Shown here: piece after piece, positions 1-62,189 of the stretch
Layout: every line of letters starts with the position of its first letter
Position numbering within the stretch: position 1 is the first letter of the stretch
Source of the DNA: an uncultured virus (IMG/VR IMGVR_UViG_3300031758_000043)
Lineage: Duplodnaviria; Heunggongvirae; Uroviricota; Caudoviricetes
DNA: 64,000 nucleotides
Strand: one strand, 5' to 3'
IMG/VR virus record: IMGVR_UViG_3300031758_000043
Coordinates: 1 to 64,000 of that record
The notes under the pieces: generated by a model
Databases searched by the model: none
What the model saw: only the letters and a program-made list of their open reading frames with translations
What the model was told of the DNA's origin: nothing
Translations under genes and position numbers: made by a program

Positions 1-1645
1 AGTTGTTAGCTATGGTGATCAAATCATGTTTACCGTTTGAGTCTACTCTAGTTCCGTTTGGGTGGTATATCCTAAACTCATCATAATTTGTGAGAGTTGA
101 ATTTATCTTGATCCCAATGTGAGAATAGCCAGGAACCTTTGTTGACTCTCCTTGGTCCTGTAAGAAAAGAATCCTGCTTTGTCCAAAAAAGAGGCCAAGG
201 TCTATTTTTTTATTAGAGAATCTAAATTGCCCAGTATTCAATTCTTTGACTGATGTGCTAGTAGAAGTCAACGGGTCCACTATGTTGAATGAACTAATAT
301 ATGAAAACTGATCATCATTCAACTTAACAACCAGGAATTCACCTGAATAGCCCGAGTCTGGACTAACAATAGTTATTAGATCGTCAGTCTCATACCCGTG
401 AGAGGTTAGAGAGGCAGTAACCAGGTTACCTGATCTAATAAGCTCAGTTAATCTAGGCGAGGAATAGTCTGGAGTGTACGGATCTGTTAATTTAGGTAGA
501 TAAAGCTTACCGTCCTTATCATTAATATAGGTCAAGTACATTGAATCAAGATCAGAGAATAAATCATTGAATTCTGAGATCTTAAGTTCCAAGTTCTTAT
601 ATGGAATTATTACACCGTCTGGGTTTTCTTGATAGACAGATACCTCATCTGTCTCAAGATAAGTCTTACGAAGCCTAGGAGTATTTTCCCAAGTAAGACG
701 AGTATCGTAACCTCTCTTTAAGTCAATGTCCAGCTTTGATAGCTCAATGGTATTGACGTAAAATCCTACGTATCTATTGAAATCATATTTTTCAGAAGAA
801 TCATCATTAAAGACGAATTCAAGGTTTAGGATGTTCGGAAAGATCACGCCGGTCCTAGAATAGCCATTCGTTATGTTTTCTTCAAAGAATTTTAGAGGAG
901 ATGATGTCCTATAAAAATCATAGAGTAATTCTCCCTTAGATCCAAATGATCCCTCGTTTATTATTATTCCGTTCCACGTAGTAAAATCGTCTTGACCAAA
1001 TGCCACACTGAGCGGGCTTGTAGGAAAATTGATGTCAGTTACGTAATCTCTAATATATTTCCCAGCCTTAGTTTCAGGACGTAAATCAAAGGTTTTAATT
1101 ATCGTTGACTTCTTGAATAGGTCCAGCATGTATTCTCCATTGCTCTGACCTGATTCATAATTCTGACGGATATCATCAAGAGGAAAGTTCGCAGGATCGT
1201 TTATCTTTAAGATCACGAAAAAATTAGGTATCTTATCCCTAAGATATAAGGGAGCTAGATATGAAAGCCTCTCAGTATATTTCTTAGATGCAAGATATTT
1301 TGCTCCACTAAAATAGTGAGAAAAATCAAATTGGTCCTTGAAATTCTTTGAAGTTTTTGTCGTGTCTACGTTTTCAGAAAGATCAAAGATTATTTCGTTA
1401 GGCGTAGTTCCTCCCTTGAAGAAACGAAAGATGTTTAATGGGTGAGAGATGTTAGAATCAATAGGAAACTTTGAATATGAATCCTTTGATAGCTCTTGAT
1501 TTGCTTTTATTGATTCTAACCATAATTCACCAGCCTCGTCTATCGCTATCTTTATGTTTCCTGTTAATTTTGGATTAGTCCTAACTAATCCAAAGCTAGA
1601 GTCATCAGTTAAAAGCTTAGTATAGAGTAAATTGCGATCTCTCAT
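1..1645 (-). CDS. Large putative virion structural protein, partial (runs off the window start)
   Basis: Not in the ORF track. Read manually from ATG at 1645 (MRDRNLLYTKLLTDDSSFGLVRTNPKLTGNIK...) and open to the window edge; co-oriented with the adjacent large late genes. Confidence 0.75.
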   Translation of the reverse strand, partial: MRDRNLLYTKLLTDDSSFGLVRTNPKLTGNIKIAIDEAGELWLESIKANQELSKDSYSKFPIDSNISHPLNIFRFFKGGTTPNEIIFDLSENVDTTKTSKNFKDQFDFSHYFSGAKYLASKKYTERLSYLAPLYLRDKIPNFFVILKINDPANFPLDDIRQNYESGQSNGEYMLDLFKKSTIIKTFDLRPETKAGKYIRDYVTDINFPTSPLSVAFGQDDFTTWNGIIINEGSFGSKGELLYDFYRTSSPLKFFEENITNGYSRTGVIFPNILNLEFVFNDDSSEKYDFNRYVGFYVNTIELSKLDIDLKRGYDTRLTWENTPRLRKTYLETDEVSVYQENPDGVIIPYKNLELKISEFNDLFSDLDSMYLTYINDKDGKLYLPKLTDPYTPDYSSPRLTELIRSGNLVTASLTSHGYETDDLITIVSPDSGYSGEFLVVKLNDDQFSYISSFNIVDPLTSTSTSVKELNTGQFRFSNKKIDLGLFFGQSRILFLQDQGESTKVPGYSHIGIKINSTLTNYDEFRIYHPNGTRVDSNGKHDLITIANN

Positions 1646-1663
1646 GAATCATGTAAATTTTTA

Positions 1664-4600
1664 TTAGAAGCTAGATCGAACTCCTCTACTTTGAACTAAT
1701 GGCGAGTCTAATGATGTCTCTTTGATGTATTGAGCATCCACCTTAAGGTCAAAGGAAAAAGGAGACTCATCTTTAATGATGATGTCGATTCCAATCTTCT
1801 TAGAATATTTTATATTAGTTAAAGTAGATGTGGTTCTATATCCACCAACATATCCTAACTTGTCCGACGCTCTAAACTGAAAGAGCACAGGAATGTTTAT
1901 TGAGTTTTCTTCGCCAAACTTGATGATTTTACTTGATCTTGCTGGAAAATTACCCTCAACTGATACTGATTCATAGTTTGTAGGATACATGTAAAGATAT
2001 GCTCCACATGTATACTTTCCTACCAAGTACTTATCATTGTTTTTAAATCCTAGTTTGATTGGATAATGAGAATCGTCTTTATCTGTTACGTTATTTGTAG
2101 GAATGACTGGTGTTGTTCTACTTGCTTGCTTGTAATATTCTACACCAAAGGCATTTGTATTCTCTGAAGTAGAGGTCTCAAAGTGTAGTGCATGAGAAAA
2201 AGGTAAGTATTCCTGGTTAGCGGTTAATGGAATTGCTAAACTCGATCCAAAATCAGGTCTAAACACTTCTGCAATATTACCTATCGCAAAAGAGGGTCCA
2301 CACAATGTTGGAATCTCAGGATGATCTTTACTTACGCAAAACTCAGTAAGATATCCACCGCCGTTTGCTGTGACCGGAATCGCACTAGTCGTTCCATTCC
2401 AAATTCTAGAGTCAGTAGATGTTCCTGTTACACCAGAATATTGTGGATTGAATGGAAGGTAGTGTCCCCAGTTAACCGGCACAAAGTTAGTAGTGTTAAC
2501 TGTTTGTCCCTGATAAGTATAGGCAGCTGTAAAATAAGTACCAAAACCAGTCGAAGGATCGCCTGGAGAATATACTTCTTCAGAAAGTCCATAGTCTCTT
2601 ACTCTTGAATGAATAAACTGACTCATTACCTGACCTGATTGAGCGCCTGCTCTCTGCTTAAAGTTTCCTAGTTGAGGAGTCGGATTTGAGTTTACTCCGA
2701 TAGGAACGATATCGTATCTTCTATTGACATGATAGTCATTGTCTGGGTTACCGCTTGGGTTAGACGTAGTCGAAAGTTGGCCTATTCCTCCAAAGAGAAG
2801 AGAAACTAGTTCTAAGTTAGTAGCAGAAGTGTTTTGTATTGAAACTGCGTACTGTTTAGTAATTATATCTCCCTCATTGTAAATCACAGTCCCACCGGTC
2901 GTGTCCTTAATTAAGTCTTTATAGAATCCTCCAAATAGAGATATTGTATCTCCATTAGAAACGTCTAAGGAGTTTCCTTCAGAATCTATCACCCGAACCT
3001 TTATTGCTCCACGATCAGTAGTGATAGACTGTTGAATTCCATCCAGCGTTGCCTGTAGAGACTTTAGCTTTTGATATAGATCAACGACATTTCCTTCACT
3101 TGTGAAAAAGCCGCTTGATATGTCTTCTGCAATGTGAGAATAAAACTTATCTCCCTGAGTAAATTGATTTGCAGTATGAATATCAAGACCCTTAGAATTC
3201 AAATTATTTTCAAAGTCTATCCTAACCTTTTCAGCAAAAGCTTTTTGTGAGACTAACGTAGCCTCTTCTTCAGATTGAATTGAAGCTGGAAACTGTATTT
3301 GAACTGAATTTGACCATACTGATTCCACTGGATTAGTCGGCCATCCTGCCTCAGAAAGAGACTTTACTTGGATCTCAACTATCTCTCCTTTACGAATAGG
3401 TATGCTTAACTGATTTGTGTTTACTGCGTCTGCGTCATTTAAGATCTCATCTACCCAAACATATAAACCTGTTTCAGGATCCAACTCTTTTACTCGAGGT
3501 CTAGTAAGTTCCTCTGTCCATGGAGAAAAAGTAGCAGTCTTGGTAGCTCCATCGCTATCAATGAATGGCTGCTGAGTAGCATTAGGTTGAGTGCCGCTTA
3601 GACTTAAGTAACGATATCTATACTTGAATTGAACGACTTGTTGAGGTCCATACTTTGTGACCTTTGCGTCTGGAATCTGCCAAAATCCTCGAACTCTATA
3701 TTTTTTCTTTACGATAAATTGAGGAGTCGTTGAAAGTTGTAAACTAATATTATTAACTAGTGTAGAAAGAGCGGTGACTTTTTCATTCCTAGAATTTAGT
3801 GACTGAGTTAACTGTTTTTGTAAACGCTTGGCTTCCTTGTCAGTTTTAGCAACTGTTGTGATGGTTGATTTAATTGAATCAATTTTCTTATTTAATTCAT
3901 CAACTTCTTGCTGTAAAGCCGCTTTTTCTTTTATGTTGTTATTTAACTCTGTGACGTTTTTATCATCTTGAATGTGAGCATCTACCTGTATTACTGAGAA
4001 ATTACTCTCAAATAAGTTTGGAGAAGAAGGAATCTCACCAATGATCGTAGGAACAGTTTTTTCCTTAGCTAAGTTCAATAGAATCAGTCCAAAGTCAGAA
4101 ACAAAATTATTGTAATAGTCCTCTAAAGTAGATGAGCTATTGTCTACTAACGGAATTGTAAGCTCGTTTGTGTATACTCCAAAACCTTTTGAAAAGCCAT
4201 CAATCGTTAAGTTCTTTGCTTTACTTACTGGCTTTACAAATATCACCTCACGTTCGTTGAATCCAACGTTTACTGGAAGCTCAGGAACCCTATATGGAGA
4301 AGGTTTTACTCGTAAAATGCTTGCACCTATCGTGATCGCGTCTGTTCCAAAGATCTTTTCAAGAACGACTTCAGTATCAGTAGTGCTGATTGATGCGACT
4401 CTATATTCAGAATCACCAGTGGTGATTAGTACATCACCAATTGATAGAAACTTTGTGTTTTGTACTCCAGCGACGATATCAGTATAGTTTAGAGTACTAA
4501 GCTTATATCTTCTTCTTACTGTAGAAACAGTCTGTCCACTAGTAAGAGTCTGATTTCCCTCTTCCTCAAGTATCTTTATCACATCGAATGATCCTTGATA

Positions 4601-25475: not shown

Positions 25476-25754
25476 ATGAATCAATTCGAAGAACTTAAAG
25501 CAGAGATTGCTGCCGCTCAAGAGGCAATTTTTGGACCTCTTAACTCGCTGATTACTGCAGCGGAAGACGACGCTTCAAAATACTATGATAAAGGCGTAAA
25601 AAGTGCTGGTAACAGACTAAAGAAAAAAATGCAAGAGATTCGTAAGGTGATCAAGCATCCAGTGACTAAGGCTCACATGACAAAAATCCAAAACATGGCA
25701 AAGGACGCTCGTCAAGCTCTTACTGATGAGATTTCAGCTAAAGCTACCGCTTAA
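25476..25754 (+). CDS. Histone H1-like (Hc1-type) small DNA-binding protein
   Basis: DASKYYDKGVKSAGNRLKKKMQEIRK resembles the Bacteroidota Hc1-like core. Confidence 0.6.
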   Translation: MNQFEELKAEIAAAQEAIFGPLNSLITAAEDDASKYYDKGVKSAGNRLKKKMQEIRKVIKHPVTKAHMTKIQNMAKDARQALTDEISAKATA

Positions 25755-33901: not shown

Positions 33902-34132
33902 ATGGATACAATCCCAGGCGGAGGTGGACAACCTCAATTAAACATTAACTTAGCTGATGCTCCATACATGGAGTGTGAAGAGTGTCAAGGAAAGCTTTTT
34001 GAAGAAAAGATGATGATCAAAAAGGTTTCTAAATTCATGACTGGCTCCGATCAGGACTCAATCGTCCCAATTCCAGTCATCGCTTGCGCTAAGTGTGGAC
34101 ACGTAAACGAATTATTTAAACCAAAAGTATGA
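33902..34132 (+). CDS. Small zinc-ribbon protein
   Basis: CEEC...CAKCGH. Confidence 0.75.
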   Translation: MDTIPGGGGQPQLNINLADAPYMECEECQGKLFEEKMMIKKVSKFMTGSDQDSIVPIPVIACAKCGHVNELFKPKV

Positions 34133-35547
34133 TAGTAGGATCTGAAGTATTGAATGATGGAACTTTTCTAGTCTCTTATTATGATGAGAACGGTAAAACC
34201 GCTTTCATGAAGAAGAGGTTAGCTGACCATGAGCTCTATAACTGGGTCGAATCTTCTAATCCAACTGCTACTCGCAATTGGGATGGGAAGTTCGTCAAAC
34301 GTGGAATGAGCGCCGGCCAATACATCAATCAATTTAGGATCCAAGAACTAATTCGTGAAAAACTCACAGCCGAGGAGATCGCAGCAGTCTATAACCAAGA
34401 TAACTTTCCTAAAAAGACTTACCTCGATATCGAGATCAAGCTAATAGACGATAGCTTTCCAGAACCAGATAAAGCTCGAATGCCAGTAGGTCTTATCTCC
34501 TTTTGTAATGAGGATAACGTCACCTACATTCTTTCTATTCTTAACTCTGAAGATCAGCCTGACGGTTTGACTCAAGATCAGATAACTCAGATGGAAAAGG
34601 ACGTGAACGATTACTTTAGAAAGACCGTTCCTCTTAGAGAAGCCGACCGTGCACTATTTGAGCAAGATTTTAAGATCAAATACAAGTTCTTCAAGACTGA
34701 GGAAGAGTTAATGGAATTCTATTTTCATCGAATCATGCCGCATTTCTCATTTGTTACTGGATGGAATGTGACTGAATTTGACTGGAAGTATCTCATGAAT
34801 CGAGCCAAAAACATCAAAGTCGATGCAATGGCAACCATGCCGACTAAATCTACTTTCTCAAAGGTAAAGATACCAACTCACCTAGGAGTTCTCGATTACA
34901 TGCAAGTCTTTGAAAAGCTCAAGCCTTATAAAGTCGTTGAGAATTACAAGTTAGACTATATTGCAGAACTCGTCCTAGGTACCGCCAAATTGAAGCACGA
35001 TTACTCATCATTCATAGAGTTTCAAAAAGATACTTATCTCTTTACTATGTATAACGTGATTGACGTCATCCTAGTAAAACTAATTGAAGATAAGCTTTCA
35101 ATCCTAGATGTTGCCTTTGAGATGTCTAACGTTGCCCAAGTCGATGTGAATAAAGTATTTAGTCCAGTACACATTGCAGAGCTTCTAATGTGTCGTGAAT
35201 TTCTAAATAAGAATCTTAAAATGATGAAGCTCCCTTGGGGAGAAGAGGTACTCGATGCGACCTATGCTGGTGCATACGTTAAGGATCCTATTCCAGGTTA
35301 CTATAACGCGATCGCATGTTATGACTTCTCTTCAATGTATCCAAACATTCAGATTCAATTCAATATCTCACCAGACACTTATTTAGGCAAGATTGATAAA
35401 GTAAAGAAGGATGGAACCGAGATCCATACTAAAAACGATACCATGTTTTCAAGCAAATCAGACTCTGTTGCTCGAACAATACTGACTCGACTCTATGATG
35501 AAAGAATCAAGACACAAGGGGAGATCAAAAAACTTAAAAACTCATAA
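34129..35547 (+). CDS. Family B DNA polymerase, N-terminal subunit of a split enzyme (exonuclease + motif A)
   Basis: YLDIEI, GWNVTEFDWKYL, YNVIDV, YAGAYV and DFSSMYPN are present; the ORF stops before motifs B and C. Confidence 0.85.
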   Translation: MIVGSEVLNDGTFLVSYYDENGKTAFMKKRLADHELYNWVESSNPTATRNWDGKFVKRGMSAGQYINQFRIQELIREKLTAEEIAAVYNQDNFPKKTYLDIEIKLIDDSFPEPDKARMPVGLISFCNEDNVTYILSILNSEDQPDGLTQDQITQMEKDVNDYFRKTVPLREADRALFEQDFKIKYKFFKTEEELMEFYFHRIMPHFSFVTGWNVTEFDWKYLMNRAKNIKVDAMATMPTKSTFSKVKIPTHLGVLDYMQVFEKLKPYKVVENYKLDYIAELVLGTAKLKHDYSSFIEFQKDTYLFTMYNVIDVILVKLIEDKLSILDVAFEMSNVAQVDVNKVFSPVHIAELLMCREFLNKNLKMMKLPWGEEVLDATYAGAYVKDPIPGYYNAIACYDFSSMYPNIQIQFNISPDTYLGKIDKVKKDGTEIHTKNDTMFSSKSDSVARTILTRLYDERIKTQGEIKKLKNS

Positions 35548-53966: not shown

Positions 53967-55561
53967 TGAGTGAAATCACACTGGGCTTTGAGCCTCGCCC
54001 ACAACAGGTTCAGATCCTGGACTTTGTGAAAGAATCCATCAAGGATAAGAAAAAATTCATCATGATTGACGCTCCCACTGGAGTAGGCAAGTCATATGCG
54101 GCCATCATGATCGCGGACTGGTACCGAAAGGAAATCACCAAAAAGGCCAAGGTAGACATAGTCACAAATACTAAGATCTTACAGGATCAGTATATTAAAG
54201 ACTTTGAGTTTGCTGCAAACCTAAAGGGTAAGAACAATTATTGGTGTCGTCGTCAGGGTATGGGCTGCGGAGATGCACAGATCATAAATAAAGCAAACGA
54301 GAACAAGTGCGAGCCCTGTCCACACAGGATGGCCCAGTCCAAGTTTCTACGCAGCCCCTTGAGTCTCACTAACTTTCACCTCATCACTACCTACTCGATG
54401 TACTCGCCTGAGATGATGATCCAACGCAAGTCTAGGTTACTCATAATCGACGAGGCACACGCCTTTGAGGAGACCTATTGTGACTTCATCTCTTCAGTCT
54501 ATTCTGAACGTAGCATCAGGTTACTAGACGTCTGGAGAGACTGGATGGAAAAGGACTTAGATGGAATCACCTCTCTCAACGAGCTTTCAGAGTGGACTAG
54601 AACAGTCCTGGTTCCATTACTCGCACAGAAGGCTGAAGAGTTACTAAGCGAGGCTAAGGAAACTCGAATAAAGAAGAAAAAGATAGACTTGATCAAGAAA
54701 GCCGACCATGTCGACAAGTCGATGTGTAAGTATAACAGGTTCGTCAATGATAAGGAAAACTACAAGACTAACTGGACTTTTGAAAAGGACTTAGATCAGC
54801 ATGGCAAGACTAGAATCTTAGTCGAACCTATCTGGGGAAACATCTACCTAAAGGACATGTTTTGGAACCAGTACGATCATGTGATATTCATGTCAGGTAC
54901 GCTACTTGATAGGGAACTTATCTCATTCATCATGGGAGTCAATGAAGAAGAATCATCTTACATGGCTCTTCCATGTCCGTTCAAGGCTGAGAAGAGACCT
55001 GTGATCTACTTAAAATTCGGCAAGATGTCCTATTACCATAAGAAAGAGACCTTTGCTAGAGCAGTGCCGGTGATCTCTAGGATACTTGAGAAAAACCATG
55101 AGGTAAAGGGAATCATCCACACTGCAAACTACGAGTTTAGTAACTGGATCAAGGCCTCAATCAAGGACAAACGACTCATATTTCACGACTCGGCCACTAG
55201 AGAGAAGTCATTAGAGAATCACCTTACTTCCAAGTTAGAGACTGTCCTAGTCTCTCCGTCAATGATAAATGGAGTCGACTTGAAGGATGAACTCTCCCGT
55301 TTTCAGGTGATCCTAAAGGTTCCCTTTCCTAACCTAGTGAGCACCAAGATCAAGAAGAGGCTTGAATCCAAGCCAGAATGGTACAATTGGAAGACTCTAG
55401 TCGACCTCTTACAGGCATATGGTAGATCAATTAGAAACGACGAGGACTGGGCAGAAACGTTCATCTTAGACGAATGCTTCGATCAGGTGTTAAATAATAA
55501 AACGGTGCCCAAATATTTTTTAGAGGCACTAAAAATTAAAAAGCTAGGAAACAAGGCATGA
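53966..55561 (+). CDS. DinG/Rad3(XPD)-like SF2 helicase with Fe-S cluster cysteines
   Basis: PRPQQ, APTGVGKS, KGKNNYWC plus Cys cluster, IIDEAH, MSGTL and QAYGRSIR. Confidence 0.88.
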   Translation: MSEITLGFEPRPQQVQILDFVKESIKDKKKFIMIDAPTGVGKSYAAIMIADWYRKEITKKAKVDIVTNTKILQDQYIKDFEFAANLKGKNNYWCRRQGMGCGDAQIINKANENKCEPCPHRMAQSKFLRSPLSLTNFHLITTYSMYSPEMMIQRKSRLLIIDEAHAFEETYCDFISSVYSERSIRLLDVWRDWMEKDLDGITSLNELSEWTRTVLVPLLAQKAEELLSEAKETRIKKKKIDLIKKADHVDKSMCKYNRFVNDKENYKTNWTFEKDLDQHGKTRILVEPIWGNIYLKDMFWNQYDHVIFMSGTLLDRELISFIMGVNEEESSYMALPCPFKAEKRPVIYLKFGKMSYYHKKETFARAVPVISRILEKNHEVKGIIHTANYEFSNWIKASIKDKRLIFHDSATREKSLENHLTSKLETVLVSPSMINGVDLKDELSRFQVILKVPFPNLVSTKIKKRLESKPEWYNWKTLVDLLQAYGRSIRNDEDWAETFILDECFDQVLNNKTVPKYFLEALKIKKLGNKA

Positions 55562-56733
55562 AATACTTAAGAATAAGTTATCCACAGCTTAGAACAGAGG
55601 TCTTGTCTGGGCTTACTATCTCAACTGCGCTGGTTCCTGAAGCAATCTCATTTGCTCTACTCATTGGAGTGTCTCCAACTGCTGGTATATGGGCAGCCTT
55701 CTTCATGGCATTATCCACTTCCCTTTTTGGAGGCAGGCCTGCCATAATAAGCGGTGCGACTGGCGCGACTGCAGTCATACTAGCGGCCCTTGTTTCTCTT
55801 CATGGAGAAGATAATCTATACCTTGCTGTGATTTTAGCTGGAGTGATCCAGTTAATCTTGTGGATTAGCGGAGGTTGGAAAGTATTCAAGACGGTTCCTA
55901 AGATCGTAATTTCCGGATTCCTAATTTCACTATCGATACTAATACTTCAAAGTCAATTCAAGTATTTTAAGATAGGTGGACTTTCGAGTATCCAACAGGT
56001 AATAATGGTAGGGATAGTTGTAGTATCAGCCGGCTCAATGTATGTTTCCAGTAAAAGATTCAAATTTCCTCCAGCAATCGCCGCAATATTGATGGGATCA
56101 GTTCTTAGTTCTTTCTTTGCTCTTCCTCTAATACAGGATCTTTCTGCTATATCAAATCGTTTACCTGAATTAGTCACTCCATCAGTTTCATTAGAGTCTT
56201 TATTACTAGTCTTGCCGTATTCATTAGGTATGGCAATTTCCGGTCTTACTGAATCTCTAATCGCAGTAGATGAAGTCTGTCATAAACTAGGAACCCCAAA
56301 GGGAAAAGATCCAAAGTCTAAAGAAACCTTTGCTCAAGGCATAGGTAATATAGTGAGCGGCTTTTTTACTTCAATTGGAGGCTGTGTCCTCGTAGGTCAG
56401 ACTAATTTAAACGTCGCAGCTGGCGCAAAATATCGAGTATCATCCCTAATTGCGAGCCTAGGTCTCTTATTGATCATACTCATTTTTGGAAAGTATATTC
56501 AGCTAATTCCTTTAGCTGGACTCATAGGAGTAATGATAATTGTAGTCTATGAAACTGGCGATTGGTCAAAACTTAAGGATAAAAATAGAGTAAATATAGC
56601 AACTCTTATCGTGACGATAGCCGCTTCGCTAATCACTCACAATCTTGCGGTAGGAGTCTTGTTTGGAAGTATCACATACTACGCAATAAAAAAGTTAGTA
56701 AAGAATAATGGCAAAGAAAAAGATCGAGGATAA
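55558..56733 (+). CDS. SulP/SLC26 family anion permease lacking a STAS domain
   Basis: ALVPEAISFALL, FGGRPAIISGATGA, QGIGNIVSGFF and GGCVLVGQT; many TM helices. Confidence 0.88.
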   Translation: MKYLRISYPQLRTEVLSGLTISTALVPEAISFALLIGVSPTAGIWAAFFMALSTSLFGGRPAIISGATGATAVILAALVSLHGEDNLYLAVILAGVIQLILWISGGWKVFKTVPKIVISGFLISLSILILQSQFKYFKIGGLSSIQQVIMVGIVVVSAGSMYVSSKRFKFPPAIAAILMGSVLSSFFALPLIQDLSAISNRLPELVTPSVSLESLLLVLPYSLGMAISGLTESLIAVDEVCHKLGTPKGKDPKSKETFAQGIGNIVSGFFTSIGGCVLVGQTNLNVAAGAKYRVSSLIASLGLLLIILIFGKYIQLIPLAGLIGVMIIVVYETGDWSKLKDKNRVNIATLIVTIAASLITHNLAVGVLFGSITYYAIKKLVKNNGKEKDRG

Positions 56734-60072: not shown

Positions 60073-60312
60073 ATGGCAGAATTCTCAAAACAATACTGTG
60101 AAAGAAAGTTTCCTGAGATGCCAGGAGACTTTGATATCCTGGAAATGGCTAAGGATCTTTCTAACGGCAACTATGTTCCCATGATCTGTGAGGGTTATGG
60201 ATTCATCGCTATAGGTAAGGACGAGACTGGATCGATAGTGCTCGCATTTCCTGAAGATTCTAACCCGACTCCATCAGCGATTTGGAAACCTTATGAGGAA
60301 GTCGTAGTTTAA
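60073..60312 (+). CDS. Hypothetical protein
   Basis: 79 aa, MAEFSKQY...ICEGYG. Confidence 0.7.
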   Translation: MAEFSKQYCERKFPEMPGDFDILEMAKDLSNGNYVPMICEGYGFIAIGKDETGSIVLAFPEDSNPTPSAIWKPYEEVVV

Positions 60313-60328
60313 TAGAAAAACTTAAACG

Positions 60329-60595
60329 ATGAAGCTTCTTACTTTACTTACTTTTTTCACAAGCATGGGTATAGCCTTATCCCAGGAACCCATCATAAAT
60401 GATTATGTCGTGGCTACGCCAGACAGATCTAAAGTCTGGATAATAAACAATCCGACTGGTCAATTAATATACGACAACTGGCAACAGAATCCAGAATACA
60501 ATGGAATTAGGCCAAGTGTTGCCCTAGTTGAGGACCTGGAACCATATCGTAGGAGGGTAAAAAAGATGACTAAAAATTCTAAAAAAAGCAAATAA
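60329..60595 (+). CDS. Small secreted protein
   Basis: Signal-peptide-like MKLLTLLTFFTSMGIALS|Q. Confidence 0.65.
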   Translation: MKLLTLLTFFTSMGIALSQEPIINDYVVATPDRSKVWIINNPTGQLIYDNWQQNPEYNGIRPSVALVEDLEPYRRRVKKMTKNSKKSK

Positions 60596-60596
60596 T

Positions 60597-61025
60597 ATGA
60601 CTATTGCACAAGCATTAAAAGAAAAGAACAAAAAGGTGACTAAGTTATCTAGTATGTGGGACAGACTTCAGCGTTACAACGTGGTGAATGAGGGAGAGGC
60701 TAAACCGTATACTAGCGAAAATACTTGGGAGGAGATCAATCGATTAACTAGCGAACTGATAGAATTAAAGACTAGAATTCATGCGGCGTCTGAGCCTGTT
60801 CGAGCTAAGATCTTTATGCTTTCTGAACTAAAGAGCAAGGCACAACGACTAAAGGGTATGAACACAAACAATGGAACCTATAGAGATCGTTATTCTGAAA
60901 CAACTATCTCACAAGTAGCAGAGTTTGATGTGCTTTGGAAGGACGGAATGGTTGAACTTATCGAAATGGAAATAGAAACTATTCAGGAAGAACTAGATAA
61001 GTTTAACCATACAACGAACATCTAG
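60597..61025 (+). CDS. Helical coiled-coil protein resembling the DIP1984/DUF6847 family
   Basis: N-terminal MTIAQALKEKNK, LIELKTRIHAAS and C-terminal IQEELDKFNHTTNI. Confidence 0.6.
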   Translation: MTIAQALKEKNKKVTKLSSMWDRLQRYNVVNEGEAKPYTSENTWEEINRLTSELIELKTRIHAASEPVRAKIFMLSELKSKAQRLKGMNTNNGTYRDRYSETTISQVAEFDVLWKDGMVELIEMEIETIQEELDKFNHTTNI

Positions 61026-61218
61026 GGCGGGCCCAAGACTAGGGAGCGGACTATTAGTATGTGAAGCAGCAAAGCTTTGTACAACTTCTAGACTTTAAAG
61101 GATGTTAGATGGTGATTGTGAGGGTCAAGATTCAAGATTCATAATGGTTCAACACTCTTCTGTCAAACATCAAAACTCTGGATTACTTTTAGACCATCAC
61201 TTTTCACGGGCTTGCCCT
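61024..61218 (+). ncRNA. Candidate structured RNA with 7-nt periodic repeat loop
   Basis: 11-bp closing stem 61024-61034/61208-61218, nested stems, TC-initiated heptamers at 61125-61183, followed by a terminator. Confidence 0.6.
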
Positions 61219-61230
61219 CCTATATATAGA

Positions 61231-61258
61231 AGAAGAGGATCTTTCGATCCTCTTCTTT
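61231..61258. terminator. Terminator between convergent units
   Basis: AGAAGAGGATC-TTTC-GATCCTCTTCTTT. Confidence 0.85.
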
Positions 61259-61259
61259 G

Positions 61260-62189
61260 TTATAATATGATTTCTAAGATCTTTTCAGCGACGCTAATAA
61301 ATTGATCACTAGTTAATACTGGTTCTCCAGGCTGAGTCGAAACTAATGCATACACGATTCTGCTTCTATCTGAGATTCCTATTACTGCATGATCATCGTT
61401 ATCGTTACTATCTCCTCCATCGTCGTCTTCAAATTCGTGAGTTATGCCATCCGAACTTCCTGGAATCAAGATCAGGTGATTTATCGTAGGGTCTGTGTCC
61501 AATGGATCTTCCAAATTAGTCTTATAGAAAAGGGTCCAGCCAGGTATGACTTCTTCAATTGATCCGCCATTAACCGTGTCTTCATCTGAACCTACATTAC
61601 CTGTTATCGAAAATTCTGATACTGATGTATTGTCAGCAACCATCACAAAGAGTCCAGGATACATGTTTGTGAAGTACTTTGATCCTGGTCCAAAGTAAGA
61701 GTTTCCGTCGCTTACTATACCATCCATTGGAGGACTTGTGTATTCGTTCTCATCATCTTCATTATCAGCCTGAGTGTGAGTGTACGGTATGCTGGTTGCT
61801 GCTAATGGATTATCCTCGTCTATCCCACCTTCTTTAATGATATCATACAGATTAGTCAAGTTAGTGTTCAAGTAGTTTCCACCGTCGTACATATCGTCTC
61901 CTCCGTCGTTTATTCCTGGCAAAGGATCGCCAGTCTCCCCGCTCGTAGTGTAATCGTCCCAAAAAAGATAGATGTTCGGCACAAGAGCAGTGATTTCAGA
62001 ATACTTAGCATTCAATTTACTTAAAGCTAGATCTATCCACTCGCTAGTTTGGATTCTGCTGCCGCCTCCTACTCCTCCTTGAGCTTGAAGTCTCATGCGC
62101 ATTGCTTGCTCATATAGAGCCTGTTGTTCAAAGAAAGATCGCAAGTCCTTTTGTTCTCTGCTCTCTTCTCCCCAATTTATAAATGACAT
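61260..62189 (-). CDS. Acidic hypothetical late protein
   Basis: 309 aa; short N-terminal module, then a GGVGGG linker, then an Asp-rich domain. Confidence 0.7.
   Translation of the reverse strand: MSFINWGEESREQKDLRSFFEQQALYEQAMRMRLQAQGGVGGGSRIQTSEWIDLALSKLNAKYSEITALVPNIYLFWDDYTTSGETGDPLPGINDGGDDMYDGGNYLNTNLTNLYDIIKEGGIDEDNPLAATSIPYTHTQADNEDDENEYTSPPMDGIVSDGNSYFGPGSKYFTNMYPGLFVMVADNTSVSEFSITGNVGSDEDTVNGGSIEEVIPGWTLFYKTNLEDPLDTDPTINHLILIPGSSDGITHEFEDDDGGDSNDNDDHAVIGISDRSRIVYALVSTQPGEPVLTSDQFISVAEKILEIIL

Follow-up and report, generated by a model that had tools for sequence, protein, structure and literature searches.

The window analysed here is a 64,000-nucleotide (nt) stretch of DNA (positions 1 to 64,000 of the IMG/VR record IMGVR_UViG_3300031758_000043) from an uncultured virus of the Caudoviricetes. 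Towards its right end lie the two elements under study, a gene for a 142-amino-acid (aa) helical protein resembling the DIP1984/DUF6847 family and a non-coding RNA encoded directly behind it. The source record has a length of 78 kb and an estimated completeness of 26%. The phage is a large T4-like one, with genes for a Gp23 capsid protein, GroEL/GroES, ribonucleotide reductase, a RecA-like protein, a DnaB-like helicase and type II topoisomerase subunits. The 142-aa gene is followed by 234 non-coding bases, and a convergent gene ends at 61260. The RNA encoded in this gap is real, conserved and tied to the gene, and we regard this statement as virtually certain.

The initial annotation, made from the letters alone, had described an 11-base-pair (bp) clamp with two G-U pairs, heptamers running from 61125 and a strong terminator after them. 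The clamp and the heptamers were confirmed at the places it had given, and a hairpin does follow them. In the clamp (P1), A61024–C61034 pairs with G61208–T61218, with the G-U pairs at 61029/61213 and 61030/61212. Because these pairs would be C-A mismatches on the minus strand, the pairing works on the plus strand only. Inside the clamp (61035–61207), TC pairs exactly 7 nt apart occurred 7 times, compared with 0.74 ± 0.83 in 2000 dinucleotide-preserving shuffles, none of which reached 7. The longest TC chain at 7-nt steps had a length of 5 (shuffle mean 1.58), and the array ends in its most conserved motif, UCAAAACUC, at 61170–61178. A cruder pattern, TCA-N4-TCA-N4-TCA, was not rare (2 matches in 64 kb against 1.35 expected), and the fold energy of 61020–61222, calculated without the terminator, was modestly unusual (z −2.04). 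Since neither the fold energy nor the bare TCA pattern is striking, the case rests on conservation.

Two further stems nested inside the clamp had been proposed, and both are complementary as described. As a stem, GTGAAG (61061–66) with TTTCAC (61202–07) competes by homology with a conserved hairpin at 61063–61078, and no conserved pairing was found between GATGGT (61108–13) and ACCATC (61193–98). The hairpin behind the RNA has 13 bp, and similar hairpins follow the element in many relatives; it was absent from the calls of a consensus (simple) terminator scan. The features of the locus are collected in Table 1.

Table 1. Features of the protein gene and of the RNA behind it, in window coordinates.
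Feature	Position	Strand	Basis
Gene of the 142-aa DIP1984/DUF6847-like helical protein, with conserved RNA partner	60597..61025	+	Profile scores, AlphaFold model, homologs
Non-coding RNA; 204-nt unit 61020–61223 or shifted by up to 6 nt	61020..61229	+	R1 match 61022–61225, RNA contigs
Outer clamp P1, 5' strand, overlapping the stop codon	61024..61034	+	Sequence, covariation in relatives, cognate duplex comparison
Outer clamp P1, 3' strand	61208..61218	+	Sequence, covariation, cognate duplex comparison
Small conserved hairpin, stem GAAGC/GCUUU, loop AGCAAA, then UAC	61063..61078	+	Aligned to the R1 hairpin
GAU block, three to four GAU motifs at 6–7-nt spacing	61101..61121	+	Conserved in the 73-sequence core alignment A6
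Heptad array, U-Y-A-A every 7 nt	61125..61183	+	Sequence, A6, spacing statistics, R2 core match 61096–61179 at E 3e-12
GC-rich hairpin and T-rich tail between convergent genes, likely terminator, outside the 204-nt unit	61229..61258	+	Folds
67-aa open reading frame inside the RNA, chance frame rather than gene	61102..61305	+	No family, stops in relatives

Conservation was analyzed through the homologs of the protein. The first three relatives (39% identity) had about 190 nt of non-coding sequence after the stop codon, with a different but complementary clamp, and shared the TCAA-type repeats. Loci were then gathered with a 25-sequence protein alignment (80 of 134 viral, 44 metagenomic and 29 from genomes). 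At least 150 nt lay downstream of the gene in 150 of the gathered loci, which gave 116 distinct downstream sequences. Two models were built, namely R1, a covariance model from 10 relatives with the window excluded, and R2, a sequence-only model of the core from 73 cores.

R1 matched the window at 61022–61225 on the plus strand (32.7 bits, E 9e-6), which was the sole significant match in 64 kb, the next best having an E value of 1.6. Across 89 sources it gave 45 matches (E ≤ 1), all on the plus strand and just after the gene. R2 gave 85 matches in 84 of 99 representative sources (E ≤ 0.01), again all on the plus strand, and found 62 of 66 seed and 22 of 33 non-seed sources. The link between RNA and gene that the initial annotation had proposed therefore holds in these 84 representative loci, where the element lies directly downstream. 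The 15 sources missed by R2 include L121 and L126, which carry an open reading frame (ORF) or a tRNA gene instead, and several loci with a diverged element visible by eye. The family reaches down to protein homologs of about 26% identity (L124, L125). Rumen genomes of Lentisphaerae/Victivallales carry it with GC-rich stems and very regular heptads, and behind canonical DUF6847 genes of other genomes there is likewise a clamped RNA, its heptads being of the CUCA type.

Specificity was assessed on 80 decoy loci with a heptad-like pattern, taken from an unspecific DNA pattern scan of viral contigs; 70 of them were unrelated, many being coding sequence. R1 matched exactly the 10 decoys that encode the protein. 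In four whole bacterial genomes, R2 found one place each, beside the homolog. Against this specificity, R2 run over 101 genomes also gave weak partial matches in 15 of them (17 matches in the Lentisphaerae-class genome G015 alone), which were not counted as family, membership being limited to strong matches over the full length; those of G015 probably belong to an unrelated A/U-rich repeat family, or else to a dispersed relative of the heptad array.

Rfam 15 gave no match at the gathering threshold in the whole window and only noise on 60900–61350 (E 2.4–10). Among the relatives, L001 had Rfam 15 matches only at E ≥ 4.2, and in four bacterial loci the element itself had no match at E ≤ 0.1. 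ARAGORN called no tRNA or transfer-messenger RNA (tmRNA) in the window, and blastn of 60300–61600 against 50,697 phage records returned zero matches. The RNA family is thus uncatalogued, with no Rfam 15 entry and no description in the literature searched, where the gene may carry another name in work on Rtc operons. A hammerhead or other self-cleaving ribozyme was considered and received no support from Rfam. A tRNA-like CCA end (GCCC-ACCA), seen in one clade, was dropped as a family feature, being kept neither in the window nor in other clades.

Two variations of the arrangement were observed in passing. A Victivallales contig has a second core match, weaker than the first (L141:9–100, plus strand, E 0.0017), at a distance of 1.4 kb ahead of the DIP1984-like gene; it may be a second copy of the RNA. 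In L030–L032, a small Cys-rich ORF with two CxxC-like pairs (about 1940–2130) stands between the DIP1984-like gene and the intact RNA.

The structure of the RNA was examined in the same set of relatives. The ~30 nt at either end of the RNA form P1, a long imperfect rod. In alignment A4 (MAFFT, unfitted, 10 sequences), 95% of the P1 cells were paired, 7 of 26 pairs were changed on both sides, and slid partners reached at most 57%. On the 45-sequence alignment A5, 86.5% were paired compared with 65.3% after shuffling, and 23 of 26 pairs showed double changes, values favoured by the fitting of that alignment to the model. An alignment-free comparison pointed the same way, since cognate duplexes had a mean of −28.8 kcal/mol against −17.3 for non-cognate ones, and 93 of 101 beat their own non-cognate median. 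The small hairpin (61063–61078 in the window) also covaries, with AU, CG, UA and GC pair types in relatives.

In the core, the 73-sequence alignment showed three GAU motifs 6–7 nt apart, an optional variable hairpin and about five (range 2–8) U-Y-A-A motifs. The spacing of 401 UYAA motifs in 90 cores peaked at 7 nt (160 of 356 intervals), followed by 8 nt (58) and 14–15 nt (53), so that the periodicity claimed for the window is a property of the family. When U[ACU]AA chains were counted strictly, long runs appeared in some sequences only, and the spacing histogram was used instead. The heptad consensus is Y-U-Y-A-A-R-A, with the flanking letters Y at 66%, R at 77% and A at 66%. Complementarity between the GAU block and the 3' heptads was clear in some clades, up to 17 bp in L142 with G-U-preserving changes. 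Two results speak against a settled inner fold. Over 90 sequences, the z of the GAU–heptad pairing against shuffles averaged −0.47 in the 3' half and −0.04 in the 5' half, and RNAalifold returned zero pairs both on 15 diverse sequences aligned with MAFFT and on the 45-row alignment, a null result that comes from the heterogeneity of these alignments.

These data already contradict the idea that the repeats act at the DNA level, as iterons or an array of binding sites, or that they merely reflect a coding 67-aa ORF. Short direct repeats can be DNA sites, and the frame at 61102–61305 is indeed open. However, the G-U pairs and the covariation fit one strand only, RNA contigs of the element exist (see below), and all 101 related elements have stops in all three plus frames. 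The 67-aa ORF itself has no Pfam or PHROG family. It was rejected as a gene, and with it the suggestion that a conserved protein might explain the pattern; an endless ORF running around a 204-nt circle was dropped because of the same stops. We consider a DNA-level or coding explanation hardly tenable, and a structured non-coding RNA on the plus strand, as first proposed, is borne out by the one-strand G-U pairs, the covariation and the R1 match.

The 142-aa protein was compared with curated families. It scored 26.4 bits against PF20935 (DUF6847; cut-off 27) and 35.2 bits against NCBIfam NF038048 (DIP1984_fam; cut-off 70), under both cut-offs, and in each case the alignment was near full-length. 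At E ≤ 0.001, 159 homologs were found, at least 25 of which carry PF20935. As PF20935 misses divergent homologs that adjoin rtcB, such as that of G001, alignment A2 was used for the genome sample described below. The AlphaFold model (predicted local distance difference test, pLDDT, 89) consists of four long helices plus a beta hairpin. Its only clear Foldseek match was 3kdq, the DIP1984 protein of Corynebacterium diphtheriae (3kdq_A, E 1e-3, template modelling (TM) score 0.71; 3kdq_C, TM 0.78), and the next were faint, prefoldin-like ones (E > 0.5). The phage protein thus shares the fold of a DUF6847 protein, a family often annotated as 'septicolysin'; its Atlas neighbours are mostly viral and include one bacterial cluster named 'putative Septicolysin'. 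No literature treating DUF6847, DIP1984 or PF20935 as its subject was found among the papers searched, in which DIP1984 is named once, in an unrelated paper.

PADLOC and PHROGs had no family for the protein, and Pfam, PHROGs, NCBIfam and PADLOC gave no toxin or nuclease family. This bears on an RNA-antitoxin pair, one of the functions offered by the initial annotation, in which the repeat RNA would neutralise the protein as in type III toxin–antitoxin systems. The adjacency of a small protein gene and a repeat-bearing RNA is what such a system would show. However, the protein folds into a helical bundle plus beta hairpin as in 3kdq, the repeat unit of 7 nt is neither about 36 nt long nor a whole pseudoknot, and the RNA lies downstream of the gene. 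In addition, phages retain the pair within gene blocks that look essential, and bacteria retain it in RNA-repair operons. We therefore set this proposal aside as very improbable.

To return to the RNA, its sequence was present in environmental RNA data. Six river metatranscriptome runs contain 11–14% of sampled words from the 1301-nt stretch around the element. In all four runs examined, a contig was assembled on 61020–61233 with 0–1 mismatches, and in three of the four nothing else of 60300–61600 was covered, the uncovered flanks serving as a silent control for DNA carry-over. The element is thus present as a discrete RNA in four of four river metatranscriptomes. Two of the contigs also run from the 3' end of the element into its 5' end. 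The X22 contig (231 nt) contains 61157–61223 followed by 61020–61183, which is the permuted unit alone with no flanking gene sequence, and the X19 contig ends at 61229 and continues with 15 letters equal to 61026–61040. Both joints, from two separate samples, imply the same 204-nt unit, whose ends lie at the foot of P1. They differ by one letter within an imperfect direct repeat, which a strain difference or a slightly shifted joint would explain.

Some points weigh against reading this as a discrete circular RNA. X19 also assembles a short phage piece at 60300–60410. The evidence consists of assembled contigs, which show presence and not strand, true ends or level, and in which a circle and a tandem arrangement look alike. 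Finally, the junction was seen in two contigs and falls inside an imperfect 6-nt repeat (ATCTAG at 61020–25, ATATAG at 61224–29).

Two other explanations can be weighed on these data. One holds that the element is only a cis-acting structure in the 3' untranslated region (UTR) of the DIP1984-like mRNA, a stabiliser, terminator or autorepression site, with no separate RNA. The element does start at the stop codon and end at the terminator hairpin with no room for its own promoter, and it always lies on the strand of the gene, directly downstream. Against this stand the contigs that lack the gene in three of four runs and the head-to-tail joints. Likewise, L030–L032 keep the element despite the small ORF in between, the element of L040 sits between tRNA genes, which are cut out of transcripts, and ~200 nt of conserved sequence with periodic motifs far exceed the needs of a stabiliser. 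We judge a purely cis-acting 3' UTR element unlikely.

The other explanation accepts the RNA and takes it as linear. Because two contigs join its 3' end to its 5' end, the RNA is circular or tandem; because the joint lies in a 6-nt imperfect repeat and was seen twice, it could come from a tandem DNA duplication in a strain variant or from template switching by reverse transcriptase during library preparation. The ATCTAG/ATATAG microhomology and the X20 contig, which runs on linearly to 61233, agree with a linear molecule, and De Bruijn contigs cannot separate a circle from a tandem repeat. However, the two samples gave an identical 204-nt unit, the X22 contig holds the permuted unit alone, and none of the 89 searched sources has two adjacent copies. 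The ends at the foot of P1 would also lie side by side for a ligase, and in bacterial loci an RNA ligase gene follows the RNA. A linear RNA is therefore a real but lesser possibility, and for a circular RNA the chances seem to us about even.

The genomic context was examined in bacteria and phages. In bacterial loci the order is divergent RtcR, sometimes Ro60, the DIP1984-like gene, the RNA and RtcB. RtcB stands right after the RNA in 6 of 16 genome-contig loci, five of them with RtcR upstream and one with Ro60, and one further locus has RtcR alone. Among 401 genomes sampled from one phylum, 12 genomes yielded 13 strong loci, and R2 matched the expected place in 8. Within 1.5 kb, 8 of the 13 loci are flanked by RtcB (6), RtcR (4) or Ro60 (1). 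Among the 16 and 13 loci, Ro60 adjoins the module only in L154 and L298, both from genome G004, and there is none in the window.

In phages the neighbourhood is one of translation RNAs. Among 57 phage or metagenome loci, 13 have tRNA or tmRNA genes in their flanks. The clearest case is L040, where the module lies within an array of 17 phage tRNA genes (1–3426), a tRNA-Ser ending 63 nt before the gene and a tRNA-Glu starting at the end of the RNA. No RtcB, RtcR or Ro60 was found within the fetched flanks of the phage loci. In the 78-kb record of the window, no PF09414 or PF09511 ligase was found either, PF09511 being unmatched in the controls as well. The ATP-dependent RNA_ligase family was matched at E ≤ 0.001 by all five larger related phage records, and in two the score exceeds the cut-off. 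Binning placed some related contigs in genomes of Crocinitomicaceae or Flavobacteriales, which hints weakly at hosts among the Bacteroidota.

Several of these loci showed further features. L043 (2904–3249) and L083 (2908–3282) carry phage tmRNA genes whose tag peptides end in ALAA or AVAA; these genes follow a tRNA-Ser gene and are ~1 kb downstream of the module. In the Ro60/DIP1984-like/RNA/RtcB operon of G004, rtcB is immediately followed by a 134-nt stretch (L285:8093–8226, plus strand) that matched positions 1–71 of the Rfam tRNA model with 45 bits. ARAGORN calls no tRNA there, and the stretch may be a tRNA-like Y RNA of the YrlA type or a tRNA with a long insert. On the Bacteroidota contig L290 (G111:C154, 4469–5500), tRNA-Gly and tRNA-Val are followed by a canonical DUF6847 gene and then a structured stretch with the T-arm-like GGTTCGATCC; this 6.5-kb contig has no rtcB. 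The Rtc operon of G010 has a gene for a Zeta-toxin/AAA_33-like kinase ahead of the module (L282:5661–6296, minus strand) and an unassigned 178-aa ORF between the RNA and rtcB (L282:7511–8044, plus strand).

The link to RNA repair has its counter-examples. It is not universal, as 5 of the 13 sampled loci have no rtcB nearby, nor do the two canonical DUF6847 genes found in a set of 401 Bacteroidota genomes. RtcB was found neither in the window's 78-kb record (26% complete) nor in the five larger related phage records. Moreover, neighbouring genes alone are no proof of contact between protein and RNA, and binding and oligomerisation are predicted.

With these reservations, we propose the following explanation, which we hold on the whole to be probable, its inferred steps included. 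The DIP1984/DUF6847-like protein and the RNA would form a conserved two-gene module. A stable non-coding RNA of ~204 nt would derive from the 3' end of the protein's transcript and end before the terminator hairpin. P1 would hold its ends together, enclosing the small hairpin, the GAU block and about 5–8 mostly single-stranded heptads. Several copies of the protein may bind the evenly spaced heptads and so build an RNA–protein particle, and the RNA ends may be cut and joined to a circle by an RNA ligase, either host RtcB or an ATP-dependent phage ligase. Such a particle could act in the response to RNA damage, in particular tRNA damage, in parallel to Ro60 and Y RNA. This role is suggested because bacterial copies sit between rtcR/Ro60 and rtcB and phage copies often in tRNA/tmRNA clusters. 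In a phage, it might protect or repair translation RNAs or blunt the RNA-cutting defences of the host during infection.

A more specific function can be read from the heptads themselves. Their consensus and 7-nt length match what we take to be the anticodon-loop consensus of tRNA-Leu CAA/UAA, Y32-U33-Y34-A35-A36-R37-A38. The heptads could thus be tandem copies of an anticodon loop, and the RNA a circle of look-alikes, coated or presented by the DIP1984-like protein, that acts as a decoy or sentinel substrate for anticodon-cutting enzymes. The module does occur in Rtc operons, which are switched on when tRNAs are cleaved in the anticodon loop, and in phage tRNA clusters, and genes for tRNA-Leu(UAA) or tRNA-Leu(CAA) adjoin it in L052, L068 and L121. 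On the other hand, the heptads are without the stems that flank the loop in a real anticodon arm, the CUCA-type heptads of canonical DUF6847 loci fit the loop consensus less well, and the module has no link to any nuclease or modification enzyme. The likeness may come from an A/U-rich protein-binding motif, and we think anticodon mimicry quite doubtful. If it were true, the particle in bacteria would feed or buffer the RtcR/RtcB repair response and be re-sealed by RtcB, and in phages it would titrate host anticodon nucleases and so keep them from halting translation.

The broader proposal of a protein–RNA module has consequences of its own. The crystal structure available for DIP1984/DUF6847 dates from 2009; the family has no known function, and a conserved RNA partner together with an RNA-repair context makes that function testable. 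The module is abundant in freshwater and rumen data, small word shares in further freshwater DNA runs being left aside as evidence of habitat, and the protein–RNA pair occurs in more than 100 phages and bacteria. Deinococcus radiodurans matched PF20935 and RtcB in the control sets, and with the module in a cultured model, experiments are within reach. A second, unrelated protein–RNA pair in the slot of Ro60 and Y RNA would widen the picture of bacterial RNA repair and regulation. If true, a small, DNA-encoded phage RNA in the form of a ring, with a protein dedicated to it, would add a new type of RNA–protein particle to those of phages, and the module may be a new counter-measure to tRNA-cutting defences. 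What is new here are the river RNA contigs, the 204-nt head-to-tail unit and the Rtc/tRNA-cluster context.

Elsewhere in the window, three genes were recorded. A membrane protein of the sulfate-permease family (55558–56730, plus strand; PF00916, E 8e-37) is an unusual auxiliary gene between the helicase and topoisomerase genes. A gene for a histone H1-like Hc1 protein lies at 25476–25751 (plus strand). The ORF of a family B DNA polymerase at 34129–35544 (plus strand) is only 472 aa long and extends over the exonuclease domain and the beginning of the polymerase domain, as would be expected if the polymerase gene were split or interrupted.

The module was compared with five known systems. TRAP and HutP are ring oligomers that read evenly spaced triplets in their target RNAs, the UAG-N4 unit of HutP measuring 7 nt. 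The new RNA resembles these targets in its short motifs and, as with HutP, in their fixed 7-nt spacing, which suggests one subunit per repeat, the binding itself being predicted. In contrast, the targets of TRAP and HutP are 5' leaders that control attenuation, whereas the new RNA is separate, clamped, possibly circular and downstream of its gene, and the helical DIP1984-type model of the protein is unlike the rings of TRAP, HutP or Hfq.

The tRNA cluster of phage T4 contains species 1 and 2, small stable non-coding RNAs of unknown function among tRNA genes. By description, rather than by sequence, the new RNA resembles them in its placement among tRNA genes, seen here in the 13 of 57 loci mentioned above; species 1 and 2 are not known to have a dedicated protein gene or heptads. 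ToxIN, a type III system, combines an endoribonuclease toxin with ~36-nt tandem antitoxin repeats upstream of it. The new module shares with ToxIN a repeat RNA beside a small protein gene and differs in repeat unit, gene order, fold and genomic context.

Circular non-coding RNAs made by RNA ligases are reported for archaeal bulge-helix-bulge/RtcB and Rnl3 products and for bacterial DucS (PMC4731332, PMC9014305, PMC10504365). The new RNA is like them in that a terminal helix brings together its ends, which may be joined into a ring, and in the availability of RtcB or an ATP-dependent ligase. Unlike in the archaeal products, no bulge-helix-bulge was seen in the new RNA, and none was sought. An RNA ring encoded by a DNA phage with a dedicated protein partner was not found in the literature searched.

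The fifth system is Ro60 with its Y RNAs. In the rsr-yrlBA-rtcBA operon, Ro60 and the Y RNAs precede rtcB, rtcR is divergent, and induction occurs by 5' tRNA halves that are cut in the anticodon loop and end in a cyclic phosphate (PMC7790460). Bacterial Y RNAs (YrlA/YrlB) are marked by GNCGAAN0-1G in the terminal stem, which is the Ro60 site, and by a tRNA-like domain (PMC4201824). They are also encoded on the strand of a Ro60 (TROVE) gene and no more than a few kb from it, a proximity that the new RNA shows in G004 only among the 16 and 13 loci. The new module likewise consists of a small RNA whose ends are paired in a long stem, beside the gene of a protein that is predicted to bind RNA, upstream of rtcB and with rtcR divergent; the Ro60/Y RNA arrangement, too, is also found in phages and linked to tRNA biology. 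Judged by the bacterial gene order, the new RNA thus occupies the slot of the Y RNA. It differs in having no CGAA or GNCGAA in 61020–61229, no tRNA-like domain and no Rfam match to Y RNA or tRNA. Its partner is a helical DIP1984-like protein and not a TROVE ring, and the RNA carries motifs with a 7-nt period. In one genome (L285) Ro60 and the module stand together, so that the module supplements Ro60 and Y RNA and does not replace them.

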